From positions 1,536,001 to 1,600,000 of the forward strand of contig CAWKNZ010000002.1 of NCBI GenBank assembly GCA_963851265.1: a DNA stretch of 64,000 nt, given 5' to 3'. This DNA comes from an uncultured Gemmatimonadales bacterium. GTDB taxonomy: Bacteria > Gemmatimonadota > Gemmatimonadetes > Gemmatimonadales > Gemmatimonadaceae. Shown here in pieces: positions 8,652 through 59,165 of this stretch. Numbering within the stretch: position 1 is the first letter of the stretch; each line of letters starts with the position of its first letter. The translations under genes and the position numbers were made by a program. The notes beneath the pieces were generated by a model. The model was not told the origin of the DNA. It did not search any database and saw only the letters and a program-made list of their open reading frames with translations.

Positions 8652-10771
8652 CAGGGCTGCCGGTAGAGCGTGACCACCGCGCCGGCCGCCGCGAGCGCGC
8701 CGGCCGCGGGGACCGTGCGCAACGCCGCGCGCCCGAGTGTGCGCGCCGCGCCCGGGACCGCGCCCGGCATCCCCGGCGCGACCCGTGCGTCGAAGCCGGC
8801 GCGCTCCAGCGCGAACAGCGCGTCCCGGAGCGGAAGCCCATGTACCGGCGGTACGGTCCGCGGCGGCGCGGCGAATGCGGTCGTGTCGTGCGACGCGACT
8901 CGCGCCGTGCGCGCGGGCAGGTCGAGCACCACGCGGACGGGCGCGGGATCGACCGCCGGCGCGTCGGCGTCGCGCCGCAACTCGGCCGGTACGAGCGTCG
9001 TCGGCGCGGGCGCGGCCGAGTCGCGCACAGCCGTCGCCTTCGCATCCGTCACGGTCCACGGACGCGCCGGCGTCGGGTGAGGGCGGTACGCCTCGCGCGC
9101 GCGCGGCAGCACGTCGGGCGCGAGCGACGCGCGGTCGAGCGCCGCGTCGCGAGCCGCCAGCGCGGCTTCGAGCACGACCTTCGACACAGGCGCCGCCGTC
9201 TTCCCCCCGAAATACACGCCCGCCGGGTTATCGAGCTTCACGACAATCACGAACTGCGGCGACTCGACGGGGAAGATCCCGGCGAACACCGCGTTGTAGT
9301 GGCCGGCCGCGTACCCCACCCCGCGTTCGATGCGTCGCACCGTGCCGCTCTTCCCGCCTAACGCAAAGCTCTTCAGGTCCGCGTCGGTCGCGGTGCCGCT
9401 GTCGACCACGCTCTTGAGCATCGCGCGTACGTCCGCCGCGACCGCGGGCGGCATCACGCGACGCACCACGCGCGGCCGGTGCCGGAACTCGACCGTCCCG
9501 TCCGCGTCGCGCACCTCACGCACGAGCGCCGGCTCGAGCAGTTCGCCGCCGTTCGCGATCGCGCCATACGCCGCGGCGAGCTGCAGGGGCGTCGCGGCGA
9601 TCTCGTAGCCCATTGCGAGCGACGCAGGGGACTGCTTGGTCCACTTGTCCGGCGCGCGCAGGGTCCCCGACGCCTCGGCCGGGTACGGCACGCCGGTCGG
9701 CGTCCCGAAACCGACGTCGCGCAGCGCCTCGTACTGTTCGTGAGGCGTGAGGCGGCTCGAGAACTTCACGATCCCGATGTTGCTCGAAAACCGGATCACG
9801 TCGCGCAACGTCAGCGCGGCCGCCTTGTGGATGTCGTGGATCGTGCGCCCGTTCGTGGTCCACGCGCCGTCCTCGGTGTTCACGACATCGTCGAGCCGGG
9901 CCTTGCCCAACCGTAACAGCGCCGCCGCCATGAACGGCTTCGCCGTCGACCCGGGCTCGAACGGCTCCGCGATCGTCGTCGCCGCGGTCGTGCGCGCGTC
10001 GGCCCGCTGACTCGCGAGCGCGAGCACCTCGCCCGTCTTCGGGTCGAGGACGACGATGTCGCCGCCCGACGCCGACATGCGGGACACCGCGTCGGCGAGC
10101 GCGCGCTCGCAGATGTCCTGCAGCGTCCAGTTGAGCGTGAGCGCGACCGTGCGCCCCGGGCGCGCGGCCACCGACTGCACGCTCGGCGACTCGAAGCGGC
10201 CGCCGCGCGCGTCGCGCAGCAGCAGCGCCGTCCCGCGTTCGCCGCGCAGCACGCTGTCCAGCGCGAGCTCGACGCCGTCGAGGGGCTCCCCCGAGGGATC
10301 CACGCGGCCGACGATCCGCCGCACTCCCTCGGTCGCGTTCGACAGCCGGTCGACGACGGGAACCGGGTGCACTCCGCGCAGCGCGGTGGCCGCGGCAGCG
10401 TCGCTCGGCAGGTAGCGCCCCGGCAACTCGACCCACGCGCGTCCCGTGTCGGCGGCGCGCGCCACCCAGGGCGCGGGAACGCCCGCGGCCGTGAGCGCCC
10501 GGCGCAGCGCGACGCGGTCCTGCACCTCGCGCGGCGCCACCCGCAGCTGCACCAGCTGACGGCTCTCGACGAGCACCCGCCCGCTCGCGTCGGTGACGGC
10601 GCCGCGCGGCGCGGGCAGCGACGCGTCGGCCACCTGCTGCCGCGCCGCGCTCGTCCGCCAGCGCTCGGCCTGGAACAGCTGCACCTGCGCGGCTTTGACG
10701 ACGATCGCGCCGACGAACAGGACGAGCGCGCCGTGGACCACGGCGGGGCGGTCGAATCGCGGAAGTCGCAC
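8651..10771 (-). CDS. ftsI: Class B penicillin-binding protein FtsI/PBP3 with C-terminal PASTA-like region
   Basis: SxxK (GSTAK), SxN (SSN) and KSG motifs; N-terminal TM; start uncertain (GTG 10771 chosen). Confidence 0.92.
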   Translation of the reverse strand: MRLPRFDRPAVVHGALVLFVGAIVVKAAQVQLFQAERWRTSAARQQVADASLPAPRGAVTDASGRVLVESRQLVQLRVAPREVQDRVALRRALTAAGVPAPWVARAADTGRAWVELPGRYLPSDAAAATALRGVHPVPVVDRLSNATEGVRRIVGRVDPSGEPLDGVELALDSVLRGERGTALLLRDARGGRFESPSVQSVAARPGRTVALTLNWTLQDICERALADAVSRMSASGGDIVVLDPKTGEVLALASQRADARTTAATTIAEPFEPGSTAKPFMAAALLRLGKARLDDVVNTEDGAWTTNGRTIHDIHKAAALTLRDVIRFSSNIGIVKFSSRLTPHEQYEALRDVGFGTPTGVPYPAEASGTLRAPDKWTKQSPASLAMGYEIAATPLQLAAAYGAIANGGELLEPALVREVRDADGTVEFRHRPRVVRRVMPPAVAADVRAMLKSVVDSGTATDADLKSFALGGKSGTVRRIERGVGYAAGHYNAVFAGIFPVESPQFVIVVKLDNPAGVYFGGKTAAPVSKVVLEAALAARDAALDRASLAPDVLPRAREAYRPHPTPARPWTVTDAKATAVRDSAAPAPTTLVPAELRRDADAPAVDPAPVRVVLDLPARTARVASHDTTAFAAPPRTVPPVHGLPLRDALFALERAGFDARVAPGMPGAVPGAARTLGRAALRTVPAAGALAAAGAVVTLYRQP

Positions 10772-14093: not shown

Positions 14094-14259
14094 AGGGGTA
14101 ACCTCCAGAGCGTTAAACATCCGTACCCATCATGCCCCTGCCCCGTTCCGGCGTCTCGCCACCAGATGGCGTGAGCCACAAACGCACGGCGCGGACCGAA
14201 CTCCCCGACGTTTCCAGGCACCCGGCGTGCCGCGCGATCGGCGTGCCGGTCCCGTGATG

Positions 14260-14333
14260 TGGGCGAAGAGGGACTCGAACCCCCGACATCCTGTGTGTAA
14301 GACAGGCGCTCTAACCAACTGAGCTATTCGCCC
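14260..14333 (-). tRNA. tRNA-Val (anticodon TAC), CCA not encoded
   Basis: Cloverleaf GGGCGAA-TA-GCTC AGTTGGTTA GAGC-G-CCTGT CTTACAC ACAGG-ATGTC-GGGGG TTCGAGT CCCTC-TTCGCCC-A. Confidence 0.97.
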
Positions 14334-53109: not shown

Positions 53110-54501
53110 TCAGCGCCAGAACGGGATCCGGACTGGCGCGGTGTCGCCCGGCGCCGGAGCGCGCCGGGCGGGGTGGACGCCGATCACGTGCTCGCCGCTG
53201 GCGAGGTTCGCCGCGGGAATCAGCATCAAGAACCCGCGACGTTCCGTGCGCGGGTTGGTGAAGAACCGGAACCGGCCGCCCGCGGGTCGGCCGTCGAGCG
53301 TGACCGCGTGGAGTCGCGCGACGCAGGCCAGGATCGCGTCGTCACCGGCCGCTACTCCCGGCGCGTCGTCGTCGTTTTCGGGCGGCCGAAGCGTCGGACA
53401 GACGCGGCGCAGGGCCACGTTGTGGGAGGCGGGCCGATACGGGACGAACAGCCGAACGTACGGGTCGACGATGACGTCGCTCTGGATGCTCGGCAGGGTG
53501 GGCGACGCGTCTGCGGCGCGCATCGAGTCGTACAGGTCGGCCGTGACCACCCCCGGGCGACGTCCGTCGGCGAAGTACGTGTAGTTGAAACGCGCGGGCG
53601 GCGCACCGGGGTCTGCCATCGCCGCGAAGGCCGCCGCGTATGCACCGATGATCCCGACCGACAGCGCCGCGTACGCGACGCGCCGGTTGAGGTTGCTGGT
53701 GAGCACGGCGCCGAGCGAACGCACGCCGTCGGGCGTTAGCGCACCCGCAGCGCGGAGCACCATGCGCACGAAGCGCTCGGGCCGTCCGCCCGGTGCGAGG
53801 TGCGCGCCGCGGCGGATGTCCGTGATCGCCGCCCCGAGCACCGCGATCAACGCGCTGGCGGTGAGGACGCCGAACACGATGAGCGCCGCCTTTACCGGGA
53901 GTGCGACCGAGAGCAAGCCCATGACGACGACGATCGCGGCGAGCAGTCCGAAGCTGGACGCCACCGCGGCCGCCAGGAAGAACCCGGTCGCGAACACCAG
54001 GCTCGCGGCGTCGTTCGCTCGCCCGATAAACGAGGGTAGGGGGCGGACGCGAGGGCGCATGATCTCGGTCTGGATGCGACCGTATTCGCGCTGCTTGTCC
54101 CATCGGACGCCGTGCGGAAACACGGCGTTCACGCCGACGAGCGCCACCCAGTAGCCACGAAGCGCGAGCGCGACCGTGAAGCAGATGATGAGCGCATAGA
54201 GCGCGGCGAGCACCGCCTGCGCCAAGGTTCGCCCGGCGACCGCAGCGGCGAGCGACAGGTGCGGCTCCCAGTGGTGCCAGATGCCCTGCAACCACGGCGG
54301 GATCTGGAACAGCCCGACGAGGACGATCCCCGTGACGAGCAGTTCGAGCTCCCACGCCGGGCTCACGACCTGCGCGTCGACGCTGACAAGCCTCACCTCG
54401 GTCGGCTCGGGCGGCGCCTCGGCGACGGTGTCGGGCGGTTCTCCCGCACCGCGCGGCGGCGCGTACCCGGCGGCGCCGCCTGGGCGCGGCGGCGCGCTCA
54501 C
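53110..54501 (-). CDS. Hypothetical multi-pass membrane protein
   Basis: GTG overlaps the peptidase TGA; SPAWELELLVTG, RGYWVALVG; about 6 TMs and a soluble C-terminal domain. Confidence 0.75.
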   Translation of the reverse strand: MSAPPRPGGAAGYAPPRGAGEPPDTVAEAPPEPTEVRLVSVDAQVVSPAWELELLVTGIVLVGLFQIPPWLQGIWHHWEPHLSLAAAVAGRTLAQAVLAALYALIICFTVALALRGYWVALVGVNAVFPHGVRWDKQREYGRIQTEIMRPRVRPLPSFIGRANDAASLVFATGFFLAAAVASSFGLLAAIVVVMGLLSVALPVKAALIVFGVLTASALIAVLGAAITDIRRGAHLAPGGRPERFVRMVLRAAGALTPDGVRSLGAVLTSNLNRRVAYAALSVGIIGAYAAAFAAMADPGAPPARFNYTYFADGRRPGVVTADLYDSMRAADASPTLPSIQSDVIVDPYVRLFVPYRPASHNVALRRVCPTLRPPENDDDAPGVAAGDDAILACVARLHAVTLDGRPAGGRFRFFTNPRTERRGFLMLIPAANLASGEHVIGVHPARRAPAPGDTAPVRIPFWR

Positions 54502-56819
54502 CGCACGGGTGCAGTCGACGCCGTGCGCGCCGACGCGCCGCCCGCGAGCCAGTAGCCGAACCACTGCCGTAGACGGCCCAACCGATCGGCGAGCAGCCAC
54601 GGCTCGCCGCTGCGCGACAACTCGTGCGTACTGCGTGGGTAGCGGACGAACTCGGCCGGTACACCGCGCTTGCGCAGCGACTCGAACCACATCTCCGCGT
54701 TGCCCATCGGCGTGCGGAAGTCGTCCTCGCTCTGCACCAGCAGGGTCGGCGTGCGTACGCGCGCGACGTGGCGCACCGGCGAGAGCGAGTCGTACATCGC
54801 CTGGTTGTCCCACGGCTTGCCGTAGAATTCGAATTCGGTGAGCCCCTGAGCGTCGCTCGCGCCGTACCAGTAGGTCCAGTCGCTGATCATCCGGTCGACC
54901 TGCGCCGCGCGGAAGCGATTCGTCTTCGTCGTGATCCAGGCAGTCATGAAGCCGCCGTACGAGCCGCCGGTGACGCCCATACGCGTGCTGTCGACGTCGG
55001 GCCGCCGCGCGGCCAGGTCGACGGCGTTCATCAGGTCCTGATAGTCCTCCGCACCCCACCGGCCGCGCGTTGCGTACGTGAAGTCGCCGCCGTAGCCGGT
55101 CGACCCGCGCGGGTTGATGTACAGCACCATCATCCCCGCCCCGGCCAGGTTCTGGAACTCGTCGAACCAGTTCTCGCCGTAGTTGGAATGCGGGCCGCCG
55201 TGGATATAAAGCACGAGCGGGTAGCGGCGGGTGCTGTCGTATTCGAACGGCTTCATGATCCAGCCTTCGATCGGCAGCCCGCCCACGCTCGCGAAGGTGA
55301 ACCGCTCGGCGTCGCTGAACGCCACCTCGCGTCGGAGCGCGTCGTTGAAGTTCGTGAGGCGTCGTTCGCCGGTCCCGTCGGCGTTCGCCGCGAAGAGTTC
55401 GGTGGGCGTCGTCGGCCCGGTCGCGACGTAGGCGACGACGTGCGCGGCGGTGTCGACGGTGAGGCCGCTCAGTCTGCGACGTCCGCCGATCACTTCGCGG
55501 ACCCCGCCGCCGCCGGAGCCGACCCGGTAGAGCGCCGTGCGGCCACCCACCTGCGCGCTCATCAGGAGCAGGCGGTCCGACGCCCACGCGAACTGCTCGG
55601 GCTCGTAGCGGAACTCGCCTAACAGATCGCGGACGCGCCCGCTCGCCACGTCGACCGTCGCGAGCCGCGCGGACTTCGTCCGGCCGGGGTGCCAGACGAA
55701 CGCGACCGTCCGTCCGTCGGGCGACCATGCGAGTTGCGCCTCGCTGCCCGGGAGCGCGGCGAGCTTTCGCGGCTCGGCGCTGCCGTCAACCGGAACGACG
55801 TAGATGTCGACGTCATCGCGGTCGACGTCGTCGCGGGCGCGATCGTAGGGCAGGCGCGCGAGCGAGTCGCGCGTGGCCTGTACGAGCGAGTCGCTGCGGA
55901 GTGCGGAATCCCCCACGAACGCGATGAGGCGCCCATCGGGAGAGAGCGCGGCATCGCGATGCGCGTAGGCCGTCGTCGTCAGGACACGCCGCGCGGTGTC
56001 GCCAGGGCTCCACGCATACAGTTGCGCCGGGTGCGCGCGCGGCGATCCCGCCGGGTTGGGGACGAATCCGCGGTCGTTGCTCTTGTACGGGATTTCGTCG
56101 AAGTGACGCCCGTCGAAGCGGCGCGCGTCGATGGGTTGCGTCACCGCGCCGAACGGGGGCCGAGAGACAGCCTGCCGAGCGGCGGCGTTGGCTGGCGTCC
56201 GGCCGGCAGTCCCGGCGCGTGCGGCACCGCGCCCGGTCGAGTCGGTCGGCGGGAGCTCGGCGCGCGCCGTGTCGGAGGTCGGGCGCGTGCTGTCCGACCA
56301 CACGGCGAGGCGGCCGTCGCGCGACCAACTCGCGCCCGCGGGCGGTGCCGACGCAACGCGAATCGGCGCCCCGCCGGCGCTGTCGGGCGAGACCGCGTAC
56401 GTCGCGGCCACGCCGCGCCGTGGCGCGACGCTCACGTACAGGGTTCCGTTCGGGGAGAAACGCGGCGCGGTGACGTCGACGGAGTCTCCGAACCGCAGCC
56501 GCGTCGGCGTACCCGCGCCCGCCGGAACGAGCCAGACTTCGGAGCGGCGCCGGTTCTCCGCCTGGACGACGCGGGTAACGACGACCGCGACGCGCGCTCC
56601 GTCGGGCGACGCCGCCGGAGCAGCGAGCGTCGCGATCTCGTAGGTGTCCGTCGGGCGGAACGCGCGGCGTGCGAGCGACCGGAGCGAGTCGGGCGCGGCC
56701 GACGCGACACGCGGCGCGGGCGCCTGCGCGCGGACCGCGGGCGCATACGCGCCGACCGCGGCGACGGTCAGGACGGTCGCGCGAACGACACGCGAGGGGT
56801 GTGAGAAGGACGGGCGCAT
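54498..56819 (-). CDS. Secreted S9 family (prolyl oligopeptidase/acylaminoacyl) peptidase
   Basis: Signal peptide, propeller repeats (SPDG), IHGGP, GGSYGG, EDDFR, THELSRSG. Confidence 0.93.
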   Translation of the reverse strand: MRPSFSHPSRVVRATVLTVAAVGAYAPAVRAQAPAPRVASAAPDSLRSLARRAFRPTDTYEIATLAAPAASPDGARVAVVVTRVVQAENRRRSEVWLVPAGAGTPTRLRFGDSVDVTAPRFSPNGTLYVSVAPRRGVAATYAVSPDSAGGAPIRVASAPPAGASWSRDGRLAVWSDSTRPTSDTARAELPPTDSTGRGAARAGTAGRTPANAAARQAVSRPPFGAVTQPIDARRFDGRHFDEIPYKSNDRGFVPNPAGSPRAHPAQLYAWSPGDTARRVLTTTAYAHRDAALSPDGRLIAFVGDSALRSDSLVQATRDSLARLPYDRARDDVDRDDVDIYVVPVDGSAEPRKLAALPGSEAQLAWSPDGRTVAFVWHPGRTKSARLATVDVASGRVRDLLGEFRYEPEQFAWASDRLLLMSAQVGGRTALYRVGSGGGGVREVIGGRRRLSGLTVDTAAHVVAYVATGPTTPTELFAANADGTGERRLTNFNDALRREVAFSDAERFTFASVGGLPIEGWIMKPFEYDSTRRYPLVLYIHGGPHSNYGENWFDEFQNLAGAGMMVLYINPRGSTGYGGDFTYATRGRWGAEDYQDLMNAVDLAARRPDVDSTRMGVTGGSYGGFMTAWITTKTNRFRAAQVDRMISDWTYWYGASDAQGLTEFEFYGKPWDNQAMYDSLSPVRHVARVRTPTLLVQSEDDFRTPMGNAEMWFESLRKRGVPAEFVRYPRSTHELSRSGEPWLLADRLGRLRQWFGYWLAGGASARTASTAPVR

Positions 56820-56892: not shown

Positions 56893-56919
56893 GGAACCGC
56901 CACCCCGAACGTGTGTATT
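56893..56919 (+). promoter_or_regulatory. Putative ECF-type promoter for the structured RNA
   Basis: GGAAC-N16-TGTA(TT), same spacing as the element at 50947. Confidence 0.35.
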
Positions 56920-56993
56920 TTGCGTTGTCGCCGCGCCCTGACGTGGCGACGGTCAACGCCCCATGTACCACCCGAATCCGAGGAGGTGATCCA

Positions 56994-57038
56994 TTGTCTA
57001 CTGCCTGTAGTTTCACCCGGATCGCCCGAGTCGCGTAA
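56994..57038 (+). CDS. Putative 14-aa peptide MSTACSFTRIARVA
   Basis: TTG directly after the extended SD; TAA stop sits in a hairpin loop. Confidence 0.4.
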   Translation: MSTACSFTRIARVA

Positions 57039-57117
57039 CGACTCAGGCAACCGCCGGCGGTCCGGGTGGACAGGCCGGAGTGAGGCATCGGAGTTCTTGA
57101 CTCCGGTGCCTCACGAG

Positions 57118-57157
57118 GAAAGGGCTCTCGGCTTGGCGGCCGAGGGCCCTTTTCGTT
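57118..57157 (+). terminator. Rho-independent terminator
   Basis: gaaagggctctcggc-ttggcg-gccgagggcccttttcgtt. Confidence 0.8.
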
Positions 57158-57356: not shown

Positions 57357-59165
57357 TTGCTCCTCGGCTCGCGCGCGAACGTGCTTCGTCCGGCGGCCGC
57401 CTGGCGCCTGTGCCTCCCGGCGTTCGTCGCCGTGTCGGCCGGTCGCGCCGCCGCGCAGGGCCGTGCGCCGACCGGAGCCGCGGCCAACGCGGAGTCCGGG
57501 CCCGCGTCGCCCGCTCGCGACGCGGCGAACTCCGTATGTCGGCGGATCGAGAGTCGCACGAACTTGGCCGAACTCTCGGGACGTACGATCAGCTCGATCG
57601 ACGTCACGACCGGCGGACCGCGGTCCTCGCGGCTGCCGTGGCTCGCCCGACTGAGCAGTCGTGCGCACGTGCGAACGCAGCAGACGACGCTCCGCCGGTT
57701 CATCCTCGTCGCACCCACCGACACCGTCGACACCCTGCGCGTCGCGGAGTCGTTACGACGCCTTCGGCGCCTGAGCTACCTCGACGACGTGCTGCTCGTC
57801 GGCTCGGATTGCGGGGCGAGCACGCCGGTGGCCCTCACGCTCGTCGCGCGCGACGCGATGTCGTTCAGGCCGGACGTGCGGTTCAATTCCGCGACGCCGG
57901 TCAACGGGGCGACCGGAACCGCGACGGCGTCACCGAGCAGCTACAGCGTCGGGTTCAGCGAACGGAACCTCCTCGGTACGGGACGCGACGTTCGGGCGGC
58001 CGCCGTCGGCGCCGAACGCCGGAATGGCTTCGTGCTCGCGGCCGGCGACCCCACGGTGTTGGGGTCGCTCTATGGCGTTCGCGCCCGGTTGGCGCGCAAT
58101 CCGCTCGAGAACGCAACAGCGTTCAGCGTCCGCCCGCCTGACCGCGAGCTCGCCGAAGAGTGGCGCGGCGAGTTCTTCGTCGCCAGCACACGGCGCGCGG
58201 GTGCGGCCGCGCGCGGCGCGAGCTTCGCACGGGCGGGCGGACAGGGGCTGCTCGCTCGGCGAATCACGACGGACAACGGAATCGGCGCGGCGACGTTTCT
58301 GGTCGCCGGCGCGGAAGCGGAGCGGACGCGGCTACTCGCCGGACCCAACGCCATTCTCGGCGGCCCATCGAGCGTGCGGCGCGACTTCGCCGGCATCGAC
58401 GTAGGCGCCGGGCGCTATGCCGAGCAGTACCGCGCGGTGTCGTGGCTCCTGCCCGATGCGCGCGTGGTCGACGTGCCACGCGGAATCGAAGGCGAGTTGA
58501 TCGTCGGGCTCGGGCGTGATCGGGCACTCGGCAGGTCGACGTCGCACATGGACCTGTGGTCGGGCCGCATGTGGCTGCCGAGCGCGGGAACACTCGCGGT
58601 CGCCGACGTGTGGGGGAGCGGCTACGTGCACCCCGGCGCGACGGTGATGGGGTCGGCGGTGTCCGGCGGGTCGGCGCGCGCCTCGCTGGCCGGCGTCGCG
58701 CGTCAGCGCGGCGGGTATTTCTACACGCGCATCGCCGCGGAGCGCTTGCTCGCACCGGATCCGGACCAGCAGGCGTTGCTCGGGTTCGATCCGACGGTAC
58801 GCATGGTGCCGACGCGCACGCGGCTCGCGAACACCGCTGTCGCCGCGCTCGTCGAGCGCGACTGGCGCGTCGTCAGCCGCCTCGCGCGCATCAACGTCGA
58901 TCTCGCCGGGTTTGGCGCGGCTTCGTACCGCACGTCGGAACGCATGCCGAGTCGCGACGGCAACGACGACGTGAACGATTTCTCGACCGCGGTGGGCGCC
59001 GGCATCCATGCGGTGCCCAACGCCCTGGGCCGTCCGGCGCTTCGACTCGACTTCGTCATCCCTGTCACGCACGCCGTCGGAGGACGGTCGAATCCCTACC
59101 TCGCCGCGTCGGTCACACCGTGGATCCTGTTCGACCGCTACCGCGACGGCAGGCGCGGCCGGTGA
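57357..59165 (+). CDS. Putative outer-membrane beta-barrel protein with POTRA-like N-terminus
   Basis: Signal peptide; HVRTQQTTLRRFIL…AESLRRLRRLSYL (POTRA-like), SERNLLGTG, alternating beta-strands; start uncertain. Confidence 0.65.
   Translation: MLLGSRANVLRPAAAWRLCLPAFVAVSAGRAAAQGRAPTGAAANAESGPASPARDAANSVCRRIESRTNLAELSGRTISSIDVTTGGPRSSRLPWLARLSSRAHVRTQQTTLRRFILVAPTDTVDTLRVAESLRRLRRLSYLDDVLLVGSDCGASTPVALTLVARDAMSFRPDVRFNSATPVNGATGTATASPSSYSVGFSERNLLGTGRDVRAAAVGAERRNGFVLAAGDPTVLGSLYGVRARLARNPLENATAFSVRPPDRELAEEWRGEFFVASTRRAGAAARGASFARAGGQGLLARRITTDNGIGAATFLVAGAEAERTRLLAGPNAILGGPSSVRRDFAGIDVGAGRYAEQYRAVSWLLPDARVVDVPRGIEGELIVGLGRDRALGRSTSHMDLWSGRMWLPSAGTLAVADVWGSGYVHPGATVMGSAVSGGSARASLAGVARQRGGYFYTRIAAERLLAPDPDQQALLGFDPTVRMVPTRTRLANTAVAALVERDWRVVSRLARINVDLAGFGAASYRTSERMPSRDGNDDVNDFSTAVGAGIHAVPNALGRPALRLDFVIPVTHAVGGRSNPYLAASVTPWILFDRYRDGRRGR

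Follow-up and report, generated by a model that had tools for sequence, protein, structure and literature searches.

Two mini-mRNAs of Alphaproteobacteria are the closest described systems. rreB, from Bradyrhizobiaceae, has a length of 165 nt, 17 of them complementary to 16S rRNA, and a 14-codon frame that opens with GTG (PMC5711450); rreR is its counterpart in Rhodobacterales (Hahn 2016, RNA Biol, PMC5711450). rreB co-sediments with 30S subunits, is weakly translated and persists longer when its start codon is changed to a stop codon, the half-life rising from 10 to 37 min (PMC5711450). Strong ribosome binding needs an upstream GAA, and a B. japonicum derivative that begins at AGGAGG, with 14 complementary nt, is found mainly outside the ribosome pellet (PMC5711450). 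The RNA is far scarcer than ribosomes, and 20-fold overexpression leaves growth unaffected, its authors regarding ribosome sequestering as no major function; a soluble 60-nt fragment is released from the ORF region (PMC5711450). The RreB and RreR peptides – unstructured and mutually unrelated – are conserved at clade level, and an ATG start was noted for the rre-type mRNA of Azospirillum (PMC5711450). A further RNA of relevance, CC2171, is a Caulobacter sRNA that, according to an excerpt of a preprint, is detected by Northern blot in Methylorubrum (bioRxiv 10.1101/2022.01.24.477521).

We analysed a 64,000-nt stretch of DNA from an uncultured Gemmatimonadales bacterium (the window, whose numbering is used throughout). 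Judged from sequence comparison, the unit at 56893-57157 is a real free-standing gene for a predicted folded RNA of about 230 nt, and is a relative of the alphaproteobacterial rreB/rreR mini-mRNAs and of the Rfam family CC2171. Direct support comes from its sequence, its conservation, selection for a short frame, covariation in a long stem and independence from neighbouring genes. An initial annotation had described a self-contained structured unit with a short frame, a description for which conservation, promoter, covariation and the terminator-like hairpin all argue; when the sequence was re-read every feature was present where it had been placed. The features are as follows.

56893..56921 (+): promoter-like element GGAAC(C)-N16-TGTA(TTTT), kept by 4 of 4 congeners
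56927..56950 (+): 5' hairpin, the core of the hairpin initially drawn at 56922-56959; -15.7 kcal/mol
56980..56993 (+): extended Shine-Dalgarno site; 13 Watson-Crick pairs and one G-U with the 16S 3' tail
56985-56992 (+): segment 1 of the predicted switch, GGTGATCC, the 3' part of the extended site
56994..57038 (+): 14-codon ORF with TTG start, TCT as codon 2 and a TAA stop in a hairpin loop
57003..57075 (+): long stem burying the ORF; -47.9 kcal/mol; covariation
57019..57026 (+): segment 2, in-frame 16S-tail mimic GGATCGCC, complementary to segments 1 and 3
57028-57044 (+): stop-codon hairpin, inside the long stem
57056-57063 (+): segment 3, GGCGGTCC, inside the long stem
57080..57114 (+): extra 15-16-bp hairpin with no U tail; -28.3 kcal/mol
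57118..57157 (+): terminator-like hairpin, preceded by an A-tract and followed by a short U-tract; -28.6 kcal/mol
54498..56819 (-): divergent neighbour, S9 prolyl-oligopeptidase family with PD40 repeats (Pfam); context only
57357..59165 (+): downstream neighbour, Omp85-like by look-alikes only; context only

Within the promoter-like element GGAAC occupies 56893-56897 and is followed, after 16 nt, by TGTA at 56914-56917. The arms of the 5' hairpin are preserved among the congeners and its loop is variable, while the extra hairpin at 57080-57114 has no counterpart in the four congeners and no second copy in the genome. The extended site, AGGAGGTGATCCA (56981-56993), ends at the base directly before the start codon; the ORF runs from TTG at 56994 to TAA at 57036-57038, with MSTACSFTRIARVA as its predicted peptide.

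Both 16S genes of the source genome end in ...GGCTGGATCACCTCCTTA, and it is for this reason that 56981-56993 can form 13 Watson-Crick pairs with the tail, to which 56980 adds a G-U pair, at a computed energy of about -26 kcal/mol. The 13-nt complementarity previously assigned by reference to a typical bacterial 16S end is thus confirmed against the genome's own genes. Copies of the 13-mer in the 4.6 Mb genome number three, against 0.1 expected: two are antisense to the 16S genes and the third is the one described here. Another 13-nt complement, in shifted register, lies at C7:265021, apparently within a coding frame; length alone is therefore no proof, and conservation is the real evidence. 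Extended helices that reach toward the start codon are structurally possible, to judge from an excerpt of PMC13009471. The suggestion that the RNA binds the 30S subunit is in our judgement likely, given the complementarity and the likeness to rreB. An rRNA fragment was ruled out, the 16S match stopping after 13 nt, as was a repeat or mobile element, there being no second copy in the genome and a single copy in relatives.

The likeness to rreB is close at the start of the frame. The rreB sequence, as given by a primer in the supplement, is CAACGAAAGGAGGTGATCCAGTGTCTTAT, compared with CGAATCCGAGGAGGTGATCCATTGTCTACT here: the two are identical from AGGAGG to TCT except for G or T at the first base of the start codon. 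Common to both are AGGAGG-TGATCCA directly before a non-ATG start, TCT as codon 2 and a frame of 14 codons, rre frames having 14 or 18. As in rre, the complement runs from AGGAGG through a 7-nt spacer to the start codon; both appear to be stand-alone small structured RNAs with a terminal hairpin and a site predicted to be masked internally, and in neither is gene context conserved across lineages (the rre fold being taken from the text of the paper). For the unit, a promoter of its own, a conserved fold and a terminator are features read from sequence. The differences are equally clear. Whereas rre complements extend over 16-17 nt, at least 16 of them perfect, that of the unit comprises 13 Watson-Crick pairs, or 14 with the G-U, and lacks the upstream GAA; among its relatives the Watson-Crick complement is 12-15 nt long in 122 of 123, scored against the tail of the source genome. 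The start is TTG, so that the first base of a GTG does not contribute. The peptide is unrelated, only MS being common by eye to it and to rreB-like MSYSKRCHLAGIAR or the rreR-like 18-mers. The leader is longer and carries a 5' hairpin, the promoter is of GGAAC type where that of rreB is RpoD-like, and the unit belongs to another phylum and is known from sequence alone. By the 16-17-nt hallmark the unit is thus not a member of rre; its sequence identifies it as a homologous variant. Since the 14-nt rreB derivative is mostly unbound, binding by the unit may be weaker unless a switch frees the site.

A scan of Rfam returned no family above its cut-off at the locus and no tRNA or tmRNA there; elsewhere in the window a tRNA-Val(TAC) gene lies at 14259-14333 (-). 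Below cut-off, RF01867 (CC2171) matches the locus at 25.9 bits (E 0.003; cut-off 75). This model aligns over its full length, with AGGAGGUGAUCCA-x-UGUCU and the 3' hairpin matched and the inner stems misfitting. It gives weak matches of 21-36 bits at 13 of 20 Gemmatimonadota loci tested, exceeds its cut-off in none of 21 genomes, and scores rreB-like loci beside a tRNA at 47-49 bits, again below 75. Because CC2171 weakly matches both unit-type and rreB-like loci, it seems to form a single superfamily with rre. RF02471 (Ms_IGR-5) was rejected: it has no match at the locus and none at or above its 45-bit cut-off in the 21 genomes, its best score being 20.9 bits at an unrelated place in one of them. 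The unit had been called undescribed, and this needs revision, for the design was published as rreB/rreR and CC2171 weakly matches; what stands is that titles and the starts of abstracts, with few subscription journals covered, yielded neither a report of the unit in Gemmatimonadota nor a follow-up on rreB, and that a literature search on the extended-site motif yielded 16S primer papers only. We therefore appear to be dealing with a published kind of gene (rreB, 2016) in a phylum for which our literature search found no report.

The unit recurs in related genomes by three routes. BLAST against 101 genomes gave 30 loci, 29 of them with GAGGTGATCC followed by TTG or GTG and the thirtieth with a single change in the motif that retains pairing; the pattern AGGAGGTGATCCVDTGYC occurs once each in 118 of 401 genomes of the phylum (reversed control, none); and a covariance model matches 30 of 61 nearer genomes. 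By either pattern (401 genomes) or covariance model (61), no copy shows up in half or more of the relatives. Ninety of the 118 pattern matches, together with BLAST and Rfam loci and with duplicates removed, make up 118 distinct elements, to which five more – three named Gemmatimonad records and two assigned by sequence alone – were added to give 123 relatives. Locus L044 comes from an unpublished genome (G129); unpublished genomes G011, G037, G038 and G241 enter the tallies only. Since the site, the start and most of codon 2 are built into the pattern, they do not count as evidence in the pattern-derived set. One genome, G023, has two equal-scoring copies in opposite orientation on a single contig (C168:6220-6359 and 10462-10601); it is the only one with two in the covariance-model search, and the pair may reflect an assembly duplication. 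The same 13-nt site also stands before short frames in viral contigs (L269, L305, L311, L331, L291, L332, L364 and L278), where the frames are rich in cysteine (MPCGTICPG...) or in lysine (MPYHKGKKK...); in 59 of 83 distinct viral matches the frame stays open for at least 30 codons.

For the 265 nt the computed folding energy is -148.3 kcal/mol (z -8.39), a stability reached by none of 200 shuffles, although 21 of 300 random genome windows, which are richer in G+C, fold as stably as the unit. All the stems initially named are present in both the MFE and centroid folds. The promoter, which may alternatively be read as GGAACC-17-TATTTT, would place the start of transcription at about 56924-56926. 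GGAAC-type promoters precede 12-18 of 122 relatives and 0-1 control stretches; sigma-70-like promoters precede 56 of 122, mostly 31-36 nt before the site (controls 0/121 and 2/120), and at the locus itself a simple scan called no sigma-70 promoter. A genome search with the relatives' promoter matrix placed nine of its 16 best matches in intergenic DNA, where 12% would be expected. From these sequences the GGAAC class appears real. The ten genes behind GGAAC-N16/17-(G/T)GTA sites – S41 peptidase, Fpg, DXP synthase, a TPR protein, a solute-binding protein and five without a family – form no general-stress pattern, and the stress induction initially suggested finds no support in them or in the many relatives with sigma-70-like promoters. 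Nineteen sigma-70 domains were found in the source genome, and a sigma-70-family gene that may encode the cognate sigma factor begins 343 nt after one GGAAC-type site (G000:C2:663794).

A feature missed by the initial annotation is the presence, in frame within the ORF, of a mimic of the 16S tail that would be able to mask the site. Segment 2 is a near copy of the tail and can pair either with segment 1 or with segment 3. In folds of the growing transcript the helix of segments 1 and 2 is dominant from 57030 to 57060, and that of segments 2 and 3 replaces it from 57066. The segment-2 motif, as defined after seeing the data, is present in 117 of 123 relatives as against 45 of 479 background stretches; it recurs in all eight further loci found later by the covariance model. 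For the 14-codon class, 23 sequences out of 23 share the 1-2 helix as consensus fold, and all 12 changed cells of segment 2 still pair with segment 1 by way of wobble, the columns in which no wobble is available being invariant. Segment 1 is itself invariant, and for this reason the 1-2 helix has no two-sided change. The 2-3 helix is 81% paired. Covariation was found in the long stem, where two-sided changes occur in 7 of 17 pairs and 87% of cells are paired, compared with 30-44% in slid controls; the covariation score of this stem, which was picked by hand on a plain alignment, is reached by none of 500 shuffles, and its own arms outpair swapped arms (0/10,000 permutations, relatedness not corrected).

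Folding thus predicts both masking and switching of the site, to differing extents across the family. Of 114 elements, 86 would mask the site in the nascent RNA and only 37 would complete the switch; all 17 full-length folds of the 11-codon class keep the mask. In the source element the computed cost of opening the site falls from 12.2 kcal/mol in the nascent RNA to 6.8 in the full-length one; for the entire 30S footprint it is about 15 kcal/mol in both. The mature RNA is thus modelled as exposing the docking site while the frame stays buried. The exact segment-2 motif occurs in only 20 of 96 alphaproteobacterial-type loci, as against 38 of 283 background stretches. Members of the 19-22-codon class (for example L011, L073 and L093) carry GCCC upstream in 72 of 76 cases and GGGC(A/G)A in the ORF in 73 of 76; these co-occur in 70 of 76, would form a pseudoknot with the masking helix, and are both missing in the 11-codon class. 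The pairing shows no covariation within the 19-22-codon class (permutation 0.315) and is absent from the source element.

The explanation that we prefer, with slightly better than even confidence, is that the unit is a stand-alone ribosome-docking mini-mRNA of the rre type in which the RNA, and not the peptide, is under selection. During transcription segment 2 would, by computation, fold back onto the extended site and hide it; after 57066 segment 3 would take segment 2 into the long stem, leaving the site largely free and the ORF buried, and the long stem of this predicted capture step has the support of covariation. A 30S subunit would then dock through 13-14 pairs over nearly the whole free 16S tail, as suggested by the complementarity and by rreB. 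Given the behaviour of rreB reporters, the weak TTG, the over-long helix and the stem would make initiation and escape rare, and the RNA would mostly sit on 30S subunits or initiation complexes. Rare translation may unzip the stem, free segment 2 to re-mask the site and mark the RNA for decay, the last step being proposed because the half-life of rreB depends on its start codon. Docking, weak translation and translation-linked decay are all drawn by analogy with rreB. Such an RNA would hold or probe idle small subunits, its lifetime being governed by spare initiation capacity.

A key issue is whether the peptide, rather than the RNA, is what selection preserves. The frame ends after 11-25 codons in all 123 relatives, whereas the other two frames do so in 47 and 17, and among the 118 elements all three stops are used (TGA 45, TAG 39, TAA 34); together these indicate selection for a short translated frame. 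Starts are TTG in 104 and GTG in 14 of the 118, and the ORFs of relatives fall into classes of 11, 14, 19-22 and 24-25 codons. It is thus conceivable that the unit is a small-peptide gene of low expression, in which site, TTG and stems serve as brakes, as in type I toxin mRNAs, and whose product is a short basic peptide or a nascent chain acting in the exit tunnel. We regard this as unlikely, although it is the alternative with the most in its favour: relatives retain both the frame and its length classes, certain motifs reappear within classes (ARIAGSR, W/RASDR), peptide conservation at clade level is reported for rre (PMC5711450), and pN/pS is 0.63 in close pairs of the 14-codon class (0.78 in the class as a whole) and 0.52 in the 11-codon class, values that are biased upward because RNA stems restrain synonymous sites. 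However, the 20-21-codon classes have pN/pS values of 0.92-1.0, the residues that recur are specified by segment 2 and the stems, and RreB and RreR are themselves unstructured and unrelated to each other (PMC5711450). In favour of the peptide reading there is also precedent, in H. pylori aapA3, for masking of a Shine-Dalgarno site during transcription by ORF-internal hairpins, as described in an excerpt of PMC6733600. The parallel with aapA3-type toxin mRNAs, so far as that excerpt goes, is one of mechanism only: in both the site would be hidden co-transcriptionally by a complement in the ORF and later refolded, but the unit has a far stronger site, no antisense partner was seen and, in place of a hydrophobic toxin of 18-60 residues forming a helix, it encodes 14 polar and basic residues.

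The peptide, moreover, changes where the architecture does not. In three relatives of the 14-codon class (L014, L020 and L027) a one-base shift of segment 2 has altered the peptide, yet the stop is still at codon 15. In four congeners the flanking genes are shared (65-75% identical), as are promoter, leader and site, but the body at the same locus is unrelated and has 21-22 codons. These congeners (L002-L005) have one terminal hairpin behind that body, compared with two behind the 14-codon body of the source genome, which is most like that of another genus (L008). The body at the source locus appears to have been exchanged or rebuilt behind an unchanged start region. On this evidence the peptide looks secondary, and it looks to be the RNA that is selected; of the earlier suggestion of a small-peptide gene, the retention of a short translated frame holds, while the peptide itself drifts and is replaced within the genus.

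An RNA acting in trans is a second possibility, and a decidedly unlikely one. Segment 2, or a processed fragment containing it, would pair with strong Shine-Dalgarno sites elsewhere once translation or cleavage had opened the long stem. Segment 2 is indeed the best-kept part of the body, and rreB releases a soluble 60-nt fragment from its ORF region (PMC5711450); but pairing with the unit's own site accounts in full for the variation in segment 2, the probability that segment 2 is paired in the full RNA is near 1, and even AGGAGGTGATC is present at only 12 sites in the genome, most of which read as coding sequence.

We advance equally tentatively, and hold to be just as improbable, a broader idea in which rre and CC2171 RNAs are old cross-phylum 'caps' that store idle 30S subunits and sense returning initiation capacity. 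The mature fold would complement the whole 16S tail and shield it from 3' exonucleolytic attack, and the in-frame 16S mimic would be the release strand, freed only by translation of the mini-ORF; if true, this would make the RNA a counterpart of hibernation factors. Its narrower form – an abundant RNA that, in slowly growing cells, keeps 3' exonucleases away from the 16S 3' end of idle subunits – seems to us highly unlikely. An SD oligonucleotide protects 30S subunits against RNase R, according to an excerpt of PMC10901742, but rreB is much scarcer than ribosomes (PMC5711450), no association was seen between the unit and loss of HPF, and none of 61 genomes yielded a match to CSD2, a domain of canonical RNase R/II. 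Replacement of HPF was rejected as an idea in its own right: among 95 family members there is no association, HPF being present in 9 of 16 with the element versus 51 of 79 without. Across the phylum PF02482 matches 342 of 401 genomes, and in this family the matches are weak. In the source genome (G000, 94% complete) no HPF/RaiA (PF02482) match was found, and there is a single RNB nuclease.

The 3' end and the neighbouring genes bear on a last alternative. The hairpin at 57118-57157, initially described as an intrinsic terminator, is stable in the folds but was not called as a terminator by a simple scan, and the best 3' hairpins of relatives are trailed by at least four T in only 35 of 120. 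Its probability is 0.999 with a modelled ribosome at codon 1, 4, 8, 11 or 14, and forbidding it costs about 33 kcal/mol with no alternative pairing. The S9 peptidase assigned upstream is supported by Pfam; the barrel gene downstream has no Pfam match, and is Omp85-like only by its look-alikes in the Atlas, which score 0.98 and carry Omp85 in 18-35% of cluster members. The taxa of these look-alikes, like the named records that bear a unit of this kind, point to Gemmatimonadota as the phylum of the source genome. In a survey covering 73 of the 108 flanking frames, 11 of 37 loci have a convergent gene as their Pfam-identified downstream neighbour, the remaining neighbours belonging to varied, unrelated families, and the unit is found in either orientation between kdtA-like and Rce1-like genes. 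That the unit is a leader-peptide attenuator or read-through control of the downstream Omp85-like operon, as had been proposed – it lies on the same strand 200 nt upstream of the gene, an order kept in 4 of 4 congeners – can be very nearly discounted, because there is no antiterminator, the terminator being indifferent to the ribosome, and because the downstream genes vary, with no conserved operon link and no control codons.

Our preferred reading, that of an rre-type mini-mRNA selected as RNA, bears on how the family may work. The swapping of a whole coding body within a genus, behind an unchanged promoter and site, points to the mechanics of RNA and ribosome, the parts retained being a weak start, a short frame and a 16S-tail mimic. 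The three defined segments are ready targets for mutation. Should its role be to store or probe idle 30S subunits, the RNA would add a new layer to translation control; if not, units of this type would still make up a gene family that lacks annotation in a phylum common in soil.
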